Assembly (NCBI GenBank): GCA_964016885.1
Contig: CAXHJY010000117.1
Coordinates: 7,260 to 71,259 of the forward strand
Origin: Eledone cirrhosa
Taxonomy: Eukaryota
Length of the DNA: 64,000 bases
Direction of reading: 5' to 3'
How positions within the stretch are numbered: position 1 is the first letter of the stretch; every line of letters starts with the position of its first letter. Positions 299-4,066 of this stretch are shown in pieces. A model generated the notes under the pieces. It saw nothing but the letters and a program-made list of their open reading frames with translations, had not been told where the DNA came from and searched no databases. Made by a program: the position numbers and the translations under genes.

Positions 299-1038
299 AT
301 ATCGTGTAATCAGAAACTAAGAAAAACATTTAAATATTATAAACCTAATTAATAACATTATTTTAGATATTAATGTAGGGCGGTGGATTGGCAGTATCGG
401 TAGAGGGTCGGACGCCATGCTTTCCAGCATAGTTACGTCCCTTTACGATCTGAGTTCAAATCCCGCCGAGGTTGACTTTGCCTTTCATCCTTACGGGGTC
501 GATAAAATAAAGTACCAGTAATGCACTGGGTAATTGCTGGCCTTGTGCCTAAAGTAGAAACAATATTTTAGATATTAATATATAATTTAATTTAAATGTT
601 AGTTAACCTATAAATTTAATTTAATTAAAATTCTACTACAGATGAGATTATAAAATATTGTGTAATCATAAAATTGTGAAAAACTTTTAAATATTACTAA
701 TATATACTTTGTAAATTAATTTATAGATTAATTTTAATTTATTTAACCTTTTACTAAAATTCCTTTACAGATAAAATTTAACAAAATATCGTGTATTCAA
801 TGACAGAGAAATATTTTTTAATATTATTGACCTAATTAATGTACAATTTAGAAATATATTTATAATTTGGTTTTAATTTGGTTAACCTAAAATTTAATTT
901 AATTGGCTTAAAATTAAAATCCTAATACAGATGGATTGCAGAGGTGTCATGTAATCATAGACTGAGATAGGTTTTAGATGTATACCTAGTTAATATATTC
1001 TTTGCAATTTTTGAAAAAATATGTATATATATGTGTAC

Positions 1039-1077
<39 letters not shown>

Positions 1078-1590
1078 TATATATGTGTGTATATATTAAT
1101 TTTAATTTTTGTTTACCTATAATTATATTGTACTATAGATAAAATACAATATCTGTTTTAATTATTATAAACCTAATTAACATATACTATAGAAATTAAT
1201 ATATAATTTTTAATTTAGTTAACCTATAATTTATATTCTACTACCGATGTAATACTTTATTTGGTTTTTTTCCCTATTACTAAATTCATTTTCTAATATT
1301 GATACCATAACGTTAATAATTTTAATTTAGTTATACTATAATTAATACTCTACTACTATTTAACTTCAAAATTCCGCTTCAAATATTATAAACCTAAGTA
1401 GTATACACCTTAGAAATCAATATATTAACTATCTTTAATTTAGTTAACCTATAATTAATAGTCTACTTATATTAAATGCATAATTTTGCCTTCTTTCTTA
1501 CATTTCCTAATACTGAAACTACTATGTAAACACATATTATGATCTAAATGCAGATTAATATTCTATGTTTCTTGAAACTATATTTACTAT
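299..1590. repeat. Degenerate AT-rich tandem repeat, unit ~130-160 bp
   Basis: Recurrent variants of ATCGTGTAATCA, AATATTATAAACCTAATTAA and TTAGTTAACCTATAA near 300, 657, 787, 946, 1160 and 1380; interrupted by a SINE. Confidence 0.6.
378..563 (+). mobile_element. tRNA-headed SINE (main family), full length
   Basis: B-box GAGTTCAAATCC, central GCCTTTCATCCTTACGGGGTCGATAAAATAAAGTACCAG; 16-bp TSD TATTTTAGATATTAAT at 359-374 and 564-579. Confidence 0.9.
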
Positions 1591-1629
1591 AATCCCCTCC
1601 CCCACCTATTATTATTTGTATTTGTAAGC

Positions 1630-1761
1630 GTGGATGTATGTATGTATATGTAGGTAGGTATGTATGTTTGGGTGTTTGTATGTGAGTATAAAAATACATA
1701 TGTGCGCATGTAAATAAGGGTGTATGATTGTATATATATATATATATATATGTATATATTG

Positions 1762-1816
<55 letters not shown>

Positions 1817-1931
1817 CTATGTATTTATGTGGGTATATGTGTGTATGTATATGTATGCGCATATATACGTCTATGTGTATATGTGTGTATGTGTATATAT
1901 GTACGCATATGTGCATGTATATGTGAGTGTG

Positions 1932-1962
<31 letters not shown>

Positions 1963-2013
1963 TTGTAGTTGATGTGTGTATGTGTATATATATATATGTG
2001 TATGTATATGTAT

Positions 2014-2080
<67 letters not shown>

Positions 2081-2180
2081 CATATTTGTCTGACTGGGTG
2101 TATTAATTTATTTATTTATTTATTTCTTTTATTTTATTATTTTATTTTTTTATTTATTTTTATATATATGTATATATATG

Positions 2181-2211
<31 letters not shown>

Positions 2212-2495
2212 GTGTGTGTATATGTATGTATGTATGTGTATGTATATATGTGTGTGTGTGTGTATGTGTGTATATATTTATGTGTATATATATCTCTATT
2301 TATAATGTATATATGTGTATGTATATCCCTTTATTTATGTATGTCTGAGTTGTGTGAGCGTGGTGGTTGTGTTTGTATGTGTATACGCATACATGGATGT
2401 GTATGTATGTGTATATATGCGTATATGTATGTGTGTATGTGTGTGTATATATGTATGTCTATGTATGAATATATATATGTATGTATGTGTATATA

Positions 2496-2534
<39 letters not shown>

Positions 2535-2728
2535 TATATGCGTGTGTGTATATATATATATCTTTGTGTATATGTGTACGTGTACATGTGTGTGTGTATG
2601 TGTGTATATATATATGTATATATATATATATGTATATATATATATGTGTATATTTATATATGTATATATATATATTATATATGTGTGGGTTTGTATGTGT
2701 ATAAGTGTATATACATGAGTGTATTTAT

Positions 2729-2778
<50 letters not shown>

Positions 2779-2973
2779 TGTGAATGTATGTATATATATA
2801 TGTATGTGTGTATATATATATATATATGTGTGTATATATGTATATGTCTATGTATTTATATGTGTATATGTATGTGTCTCTATATGTATGCGCGTATGTG
2901 TATGTGTATATATATGGTGTGTGTATGTATATGTATGTGTATGTATGTGTTCATGTGTATGTATATGTACGTG

Positions 2974-3004
<31 letters not shown>

Positions 3005-3030
3005 ATCGATGTATATTTTATATTTTACTT

Positions 3031-3075
<45 letters not shown>
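1630..3075. repeat. Compound (TA)n/(TG)n/(TATG)n microsatellite
   Basis: Directly visible. Confidence 0.95.
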
Positions 3076-3077
<2 letters not shown>

Positions 3078-3229
3078 CTTAATATTTTTCTTTTTTCTTT
3101 TTCTTTTTATTTCTAAATTTATAGATACATTTATAAATAGGCAGTTTGCTGACACCAGTAAATACTGACCTCTTCCCCCCCCCCACCTACTTTCTGTATC
3201 TGGATCTAAATATGTGTGGCAGTGTTTAT

Positions 3230-4045
3230 GTGCGCGCATTAATGTCCATATGCTTATGATAATAGTATATACACATATGTGTGTGTGAGTGTGTGTGTGT
3301 ATTTATGTTCGTGGTTGTGTGTATGTTCGTGGTTGTGTGTATGTTTATGCGTATATGCGCGTGTGTGTGTGAATGTATGTATATGTGTGAGTATATGAAT
3401 GTGTATATATTTATTTTTATATTTATATGTTTATATGCGTATATGTATTTTATCTGTAGATTATAAACATACAGAGGACATTAGCCCTGAATTTTTGTAT
3501 TTACATACATCTTTTCGGCATGCGTATGCATGTGAACATATATTTTTATGCATATCTGTGAACGAAGTTACTTACATATATACACACACCTAACTGTATA
3601 AACTTTTTGTGTTTCCATTGGTCAATTTGAACTCTGTTCCCAAACAGACCTGTAATTTTGAATTGTTGTTATTATCAATAAATATATTTCATTATTTCTG
3701 AAGACGGCATATATATGAGTTGGTATGTATATTTAATTTTGATAGTTTGTATAATTTTGTATAATTTTGTATAATTTTGTACATAGATCTGTTAAATATA
3801 CATGCAATTCTAACACATATATATCCCAGAAACGATCGTTAATAATGAACTTTTTTTGTTTAATATAAGGAACTGTTTCATTGTTTTATTCATTATTTTT
3901 TTAATATTTTATCTTGACTCTGTATTCCGTTATCTTTCACCGAAAGTGATTTTTCATTGCATCTCTTCTTTCCATGATATCCGGATTACATTGAGTTCTT
4001 CATACGGATTGGACACTACCGTAAACTCTTGGTAGATTTATCTAC
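3230..4045 (+). mobile_element. Family B hammerhead-bearing element
   Basis: Homologous over ~650 bp to 61080-61697; contains the hammerhead fold at 3688-3849; boundaries approximate. Confidence 0.65.
3688..3849 (+). ncRNA. Hammerhead ribozyme with ~120-nt helix II (family B)
   Basis: TTCATTATTT-CTGAAGA (3698-3704) ... GAAA (3829-3832)-CGATCG-TT-AATAATGAA. Confidence 0.7.
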
Positions 4046-4066
4046 ATATATTTATATATATATATT

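Follow-up and report, generated by a model that had tools for sequence, protein, structure and literature searches.

Can a hammerhead ribozyme carry an arm of more than a hundred nucleotides between the two halves of its catalytic core and, if so, what would such an arm do? The question is raised by two places on the forward strand of the window, by which we mean the whole 64,000-nt stretch of Eledone cirrhosa DNA analysed here. A preliminary description, made from the letters of the window, had read both as hammerheads with an expanded helix II. The motif is the pseudo-LTR hammerhead of a Hydra-clade Penelope-like retrotransposon (PLE).

The two motifs of the window

The first hammerhead (3688..3849, plus strand, as are all features of the window unless a minus sign is given) has the layout TTCATTATTT-CTGAAGA-insert-GAAACGATCGTT-helix I strand. 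The 5′ strand of helix I (3688..3697), placed from the sequence and from pair tallies, precedes the core nucleotides C3 to A9 (CUGAAGA, 3698..3704), and only its last 7 nt would lie within the transcript, whose putative capped start, judged from the positions of copy ends, is the A at 3691 of an initiator-like TCATT. Helix II occupies the next 124 nt (3705..3828), where 115-116 nt is typical of the family, and reads C·A, G-C, G-C and C·C at its base, after which come a long stem, a middle helix and, in the apical part, an internal loop. The middle helix has in its 5′ strand the GTATGT kept in lineages A to C of the family (3723..3728), a candidate splice donor; the apical domain TGATA...TACATAGATC (3740..3789), kept across lineages, holds three TTTGTATAAT units (3746-3775). 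Beyond the insert come G12 to A14 and the helix III palindrome (3829..3840, GAAAC starting at 3829 and the palindrome spanning 3831-3840), the predicted cut site after U3840 (N17; the triplet is GUU here and GUA in lineages B and C) and the 3′ strand of helix I (3841..3849). The end of the pseudo-LTR (3850..3912) reaches the short 3′ end of the family at ~3912, a putative first start of reverse transcription, and an optional tail of ~136 nt (3913..4048) ends at (TA)n, where a second start would lie. The second hammerhead (61489..61643) has a 10-bp helix I, its core at 61499, GAAAC at 61622 and N17 at 61633, with a helix II insert of 116 nt between core and GAAAC.

The preliminary description was right that an insert of ~116-124 nt (124 nt in copy 1, 116 nt in copy 2) splits the core halves and that a hairpin with short repeats bridges them: against shuffled sequences the two copies fold with z = -5.8 and -6.7, respectively, none of 200 shuffles being as stable, and TTTGTATAAT occurs three times in copy 1 and twice in copy 2. 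Other details had to be amended. Helix I, described as conserved, is a perfect 10-bp helix in the family form, but in copy 1 one A is missing from the 3′ strand, and the helix is bulged beside the core; the palindrome, given as CGATCG, is present but extends over AACGATCGTT, which makes an intermolecular helix III of 8 bp; and the first pair of helix II is C·A and not G-C. The genome search with relaxed helix II length that had been proposed, using a core-N100-130-core pattern, returned at least 6,375 exact matches, with 0 for the reversed-pattern control. Both distant copies are indeed present (identity 143/152), but they are young siblings in this repeat, so that their likeness shows descent and is no sign of selection.

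As anticipated, the motif escapes Rfam, which gave 0 matches at the gathering score over the whole window, missing its short hammerhead-like motifs likewise, and no hammerhead model at E<=10 between 3550 and 4100. The window also holds hammerhead-like motifs of other kinds: a family with a ~60-nt helix II (+9515 and -9456, head-to-head, and -56943), two tested members of which fold only 1.4-1.6 sd better than shuffles; a further repeat family of cores with 26-35-nt spacers, mostly followed by GAAATATAT (+35, +15154, -20430, -8120 and +61983); and minimal-type motifs with 13-nt spacers (-46913, -21858, +14704 and +34508). Across the genome, hammerhead arm lengths are ~13, 30, 60, 90 and 100-125 nt.

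Host element, lineages and covariation

The first hammerhead belongs to a 5′-truncated Penelope-like copy (559..4048) made of a microsatellite-rich 3′ region, pseudo-LTR and tail, with no ORF; over 3.6 kb it is 91% identical to non-coding sequence of another genomic locus (L031). The second belongs to a shorter copy of the same element (61077..61697), which has the short 3′ end followed by (TA)n. The element ORF is absent from both (tblastn of the ORF against the window gave no match). Compared with the 3.0-Gb genome, the motif region has 1,010 candidate matches, the best 40 of them at 96-100%. Among four tandem units fetched, three have an intact 830-codon frame (813 aa from Met), and the fourth is interrupted after 759 codons. 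This single ORF encodes a reverse transcriptase (RT; DIxxYY, YRDD) followed at the C-terminus by a GIY-YIG endonuclease (YIGAT), with RWR at residue 37, DKT at 115, CNCRNKANC (CxCX5C) at 673, CRLC (CxxC) at 771 and CNH (CxH) at 799; 118 homologues at 31-48% were found among 7,994 candidates scored, and a Pfam search with the ORF gave no match at cut-off. The assignment to the Hydra clade rests on the diagnostic motifs (Craig et al. 2021, PMC8557442, section 11) and on the architecture of the element, which has the pseudo-LTRs, inverted 5′-truncated copies, optional tail and (TA)n targets that are hallmarks of Hydra elements. Inverted copy pairs show two 3′ ends, one short and one with the ~136-nt tail, (TA)n following both, and one arm of each kind is found in 7 of the 8 junction loci parsed (of 15). 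A 3′ region of ~3.5-4 kb, mostly (TA)n/(TG)n microsatellite, is present in every long copy (L068:3487-7630; window 559-3690), so that the unit is over twice the size reported for Hydra elements. Between RT and endonuclease, the L068 ORF contains an Asn/Thr/Lys-rich insert (residues ~470-590) that recalls the N-rich inserts of rotifer Penelope ORFs (PMC3846280). A non-LTR retrozyme was considered and rejected: the tandem units are 6.5-7 kb long and coding, not non-coding units of a few hundred nucleotides, and the short copies are dispersed or head-to-head.

Besides the young lineage A, to which the TTTGTATAAT duplication is limited, we examined lineage B (134 pattern matches, including a few young copies; an arm of ~106 nt; identity mostly 60-79% in ORF pieces), lineage C (308 matches; arm ~102 nt; ORF pieces mostly 50-77% identical) and lineage E (1,231 candidates, 40 of them scored and 15 examined; arm ~90 nt). 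The proteins of the older lineages are ~55-78% identical, a helix II of 100-125 nt is kept and the 8-bp helix III palindrome persists. Since MAFFT misaligned the stems of lineage C (alignment A3), the tally of pairs was made by register from the core and covers 91 motifs of A, 23 of B and 34 of C taken from fetched loci, with 3 others set aside; overlapping loci may repeat a copy in these tallies, and the search patterns required the core, the constancy of which in lineages A to C is thus partly built in.

From the core outward, the first four pairs of helix II read C·A, G-Y, G-C and C·C in lineage A, C·A, G-C, G-C and C·C in C, and U-A, G-C, G-C and C·C in B. The first pair (10.1-11.1) is C·A in 87/91 motifs of A and 33/34 of C and U-A in all 23 of B, where U was found in 91/92 copies when the position was left free. 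Pairing at the helix II base, on which the preliminary description made its reading depend, is therefore partial: the first pair is mismatched in lineages A and C and Watson-Crick in B, and pairs 2 and 3 are present. Pairs 5 to 10 are A-U, U-A, A-U, U-A, A-U, U-A in lineages A and B, and G-C, G-C, G-C, U-A, A-U, G-C in lineage C, so that four of these six basal positions changed from the A-U/U-A to the G-C class with both sides swapped, all pairs being Watson-Crick. Pair 5 varies within lineage A itself (A-U, G-U, G-C). Helix I, which pairs both motif ends over 10 bp in the family, shows compensatory changes between lineages as well, from U-A to C-G at pair 5 in lineage B and at pair 10 in lineage C; pair 6 is U·G in one subfamily of A. 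All this takes place at an insert identity between A and C of 69/101.

Within 19 A and B sequences, 96.4% of cells pair versus 19-59% for slid controls, in a structure derived from the same sequences, and the three pairs with two-sided change in alignment A2 do not beat the shuffle control (162/500). It is lineage C, compared by register, that supplies the strong covariation, and the independent events behind it are few. Hairpin z-scores range from -3.7 to -6.7 across the copies and lineages tested, and each of the four lineages has the apical TGATA...ATAGATC motif. In two other organisms, DNA contigs match parts of the hammerhead motif but none extends across all of it, so that they contributed nothing to the covariation. 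Taken together, the compensatory changes indicate that the long-armed hammerhead fold is a real, selected structure. The proposal of an expanded-helix-II variant thus stands, but not as a recent insertion: the arm is long in all four lineages, and the TTTGTATAAT duplication adds only ~10 nt in the youngest.

Shorter arms are rare (3 matches with 5-35-nt gaps, 13 with 45-75-nt gaps). We rejected a short-armed ancestor, the three matches with 5-35-nt gaps being internal deletions with full-length partner arms, and a stepwise decay from a canonical helix base in the young lineage, the distant lineage C being likewise C·A. In head-to-head pairs (L149, L150 and L151), the hairpin is often internally deleted in one arm and whole in the other, which suggests that the RT slipped at the stem.

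Hairpin, helix I and palindrome are all retained in lineage E, with C at position 4 in 12/15 copies and an extra GAA in 13/15; in these loci (L209-L223), G-C pairs stand directly against GAAA and the core is CCGAAGA in most copies. An altered core beside an intact hairpin means that catalysis may not be what is conserved, and lineage E argues that the structure can outlast the standard core.

Predicted folding, copy ends and the RNA template

Both window copies have the type I core (CUGANGA and GAAA), the A15.1-U16.1 pair and an NUH cut site, which is GUU or GUA in lineages A to C (N17 being U or A); position 4 differs in lineage E. A monomer forms 2 bp of helix III and two copies together form 8 bp, the palindrome duplex having a computed energy of -10 kcal/mol. 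In the predicted ground state, UUUCUG pairs with YAGAAA and buries the core. The catalytic fold lies above this state in 7/7 representatives, by 3.4-5.8 kcal/mol with a 7-bp helix I and by 1.2-3.1 kcal/mol with the full helix I; it costs 9.9 kcal/mol in window copy 1. When longer downstream context was included, the cost rose to 6-14 kcal/mol and the blocking pairs had probabilities of 0.06 to 0.99. The monomer RNA is predicted to be one long rod with its core switched off, and with such a spread this off state is a prediction and not a result.

A G10.1-C11.1 pair is called highly conserved in PLE hammerheads (PMC4209133), and mismatches occur there naturally, with C·A in PLE-X1_cBra and U·U in many Hydra motifs (PMC8557442, File S2) and a natural U·U elsewhere (PMC3088659). 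PLE hammerheads are described as slow and dimeric (PMC4209133), known motifs of this kind as slow (PMC6765202), and the minimal ones as lacking the tertiary contact between loops I and II (PMC6155905); the invariant C·C at pair 4 of helix II is a candidate for such a contact in the Eledone motif. The C·A first pair, the 2-bp helix III of the monomer, the predicted burial of the core and the altered core of lineage E make fast cleavage doubtful, and ribozyme activity is probably low.

The ends of genomic copies carry a record of the RNA that was copied. Genome-wide, 1,588 copies have a non-C base before ATTATTTCTGAAGACGGC, that is, they begin 7 nt before the core. Among the 100 listed, none has native upstream sequence, two read (TA)n-G-ATTATTT, and the base before the start is G in 27, A in 50 and T in 23, with G in only 6 one place further up; this tally was made by eye, and the opposite arm could supply the G in 6 of the 27 cases. 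A non-templated G is a mark of a copied cap, and TCA+1TT an initiator. Position 3691 would accordingly mark a capped transcription start. Copies of lineages B and C likewise begin within helix I, 7/30 and 8/30, respectively, being without native upstream sequence. Head-to-head junctions with less than 30 nt between two cores number 863, some of lineage C included, with 0 in the control.

Starts at the cut site are scarce by comparison. An anchor downstream of it finds 8,799 copies in all; of the 100 listed, 30 + 14 were mapped and the remaining 56 carry both core halves by coordinate match to the core-pattern list. Not one of these 100 has its start at the cut site; in 13 the start falls within the 140 nt that separate core from anchor, and 7 of the first 30 start exactly at -7. 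Genome-wide, a two-base filter yields 22 candidate starts at the cut site, 14 of which are junctions of the fold-back kind that show A-run microhomology; close to the site there are 78 head-to-head junctions. The start peak exceeds the cut-site count well over tenfold; the two filters are not alike, and these counts leave room for a slight excess at the cut site. With 1,588 copies at -7 against 22 candidates at the cut site, the reverse-transcribed template was likely uncut.

A working model, its alternatives and known systems

We therefore favour, with a probability of about 0.62, a slow, dimer- or protein-dependent type I hammerhead with a 100-125-nt helix II in a Hydra-clade PLE, whose RNA starts 7 nt before the core and is copied uncut. 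An internal Pol II initiator in the upstream pseudo-LTR would overlap helix I, and RNA would start 494 nt before the ATG. The element RT would begin at two internal sites, ~70 and ~205 nt past the cut site, run through the intact hammerhead and stop at the cap, leaving many tiny head-to-head insertions in (TA)n; starts in the first pseudo-LTR would give arms of 200-340 nt, and starts in the second long, often truncated copies. The core, predicted to be off, could be switched on by the 8-bp palindrome of a second copy or by bound protein, which would be easiest in the 3′ read-through copy, where helix I has 10 bp. Cleavage, if any, would part the cap from the ORF or the body from the RT start sites, and so be either a brake or a step of later processing. 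The long arm would stay outside the core and leave its geometry untouched; to judge by its conservation, the apical loop most likely binds a protein, namely the element RT-endonuclease, at the RNA 5′ end. In Anolis, the PLE hammerhead needs protein to cut, and in vitro the main template is RNA that has not been cut (PMC11167929). We offer, as a tentative extension that we regard as unlikely to hold in full, that the ~100-nt arm is a safety catch which holds the core off, docks a protein and hides a splice donor, one hairpin thereby choosing between spliced mRNA, uncut template and cleaved RNA.

The same observations could mean that the hammerhead is catalytically dead and persists as promoter DNA and as a 5′ RNA hairpin recognised by an element protein. 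The altered core and intact hairpin of lineage E, the C·A first pair, a core predicted to be paired away and the near absence of copies starting at the cut site would all fit, as would the overlap of the first 33 nt with the putative initiator and, in lineage C, a DPE-like AGACGT at +28; Penelope has a DPE (PMC2377424). Yet lineages A to C preserve, with compensatory changes, GAAAC, the palindrome, H at position 17 and helix I pairing, all of them 130-150 nt from the start, and the U-A pair at 10.1-11.1 is restored in lineage B, so that we hold this account to be unlikely.

Compatible with the slow hammerhead we favour, and somewhat less probable again, is that the arm hides a splice donor, GTATGT at ~+33, which would be joined to an acceptor 37 nt before the ATG. 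The mRNA would thereby lose upstream ATGs (there are 10), the hammerhead's 3′ half and the RT start sites, and the hairpin would keep the template unspliced. GTATGT is found in 95/99 motifs of A, at least 17/23 of B and 26/34 of C, and changes in the middle helix fall mostly on the partner strand; the donor is absent from lineage E. The sequence TTTAG/TTGAGCTC lies 37 nt before the ATG in L068 (~1008) and L178 (minus strand); as lineages A and C share it and their homology sets in at the AG, it is likely the 3′ splice site of a 5′ UTR intron, and in Penelope the 5′ UTR contains an intron 46 nt downstream of the start (PMC2377424). A short intron of 44-54 nt fits poorly, with a precise GT-AG loss in 0/13 copies with a 48-78-nt arm and only 19-24 nt from donor to branch.

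An efficient ribozyme in vivo, whose cut RNAs are destroyed or serve only as mRNA while the genome records the small uncut fraction, seems improbable to us. The core is complete in lineages A to C, with the 10-bp helix I of a read-through copy the price is only 1-3 kcal/mol, the cut site is the exact meeting point of a few head-to-head junctions, and the 22 matches there may exceed a background of ~8 ends per position; set against this are the 2-bp monomeric helix III, the mismatched helix II base, the GUU triplet of the most abundant lineage and the slowness of known PLE motifs (PMC4209133, PMC11167929, PMC6765202). Finally, a chance AT-rich microsatellite hairpin between two chance core-like words, which the largely (AT)n-like stem of lineages A and B might suggest, is refuted by the covariation, with GGGUAG/CUACCC in the same register in lineage C, by z-scores of -3.7 to -6.7 and by a pseudo-LTR position matching that of all other Hydra elements (PMC8557442), and can practically be dismissed.

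The role of hammerheads in Penelope-like elements has been described as unclear (PMC8557442). The present family offers an in vivo record of thousands of insertions whose 5′ ends mark a putative cap rather than the cut site, in agreement with the one in vitro study (PMC11167929), and supplies a putative exact start, two putative sites of RT initiation, intact reading frames and the fold in four natural variants. Descriptor searches have been limited to spacers of 7-17 or 35-50 nt (PMC8557442); whole families escape such descriptors and Rfam, and the number of hammerheads counted in animal genomes is accordingly too low.

Hydra-element hammerheads were already known, as were, for one element, uncut templates and protein-assisted cleavage in vitro (PMC11167929). 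In the literature covered here, we found neither a natural hammerhead of type I whose helix II covaries over 100 nt (supplementary motif lists may include cases with a long stem II) nor a capped-start signature inside a PLE hammerhead. The Eledone motif resembles the Hydra-clade PLE hammerheads (PMC8557442, File S2) in being type I, on the sense strand and near the 3′ end, and in its short palindromic helix III, frequent mismatch beside the core, (TA)n targets and protein motifs. It differs in its arm of 100-125 nt, where Hydra motifs have a 3-7-bp helix II and 3-10-nt loops, the longest loop 2 in File S2 being 35 nt in a non-Hydra PLE-X, and in its unit of ~6.5-7 kb with a ~136-nt tail versus elements of <~3 kb with a usual tail of 30-40. 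With the minimal PLE hammerheads (Cervera and de la Pena 2014, PMC4209133) it shares the extra nucleotide after A9, the palindromic helix III, a predicted use as dimer and a motif in both flanking repeats; there, however, a "larger than usual" helix II has 7-8 bp and G10.1-C11.1 abuts the core, whereas in Eledone a Y·A pair intervenes and the stem has ~40-50 bp. As in Anolis Poseidon (Frangieh et al. 2024, PMC11167929), two internal RT starts define a short end and a tail, and the RNA template is uncut, both putatively so here; for Poseidon, no RNA ends were found at the cut site. The evidence for that element is in vitro and its ORF starts inside stem II; ours is genomic, a sharp capped-start signature lies in helix I and the ATG lies 353 nt past the cut site. 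Finally, the discontinuous CLEC2 hammerhead (Martick et al. 2008, via PMC6155905) likewise has a very large arm insert that standard searches missed, but it is of type III, with an insert of 150-1,500 nt in helix I, and resides in the 3′ UTR of a host mRNA, whereas the Eledone arm is a covarying helix II rod in a mobile element.
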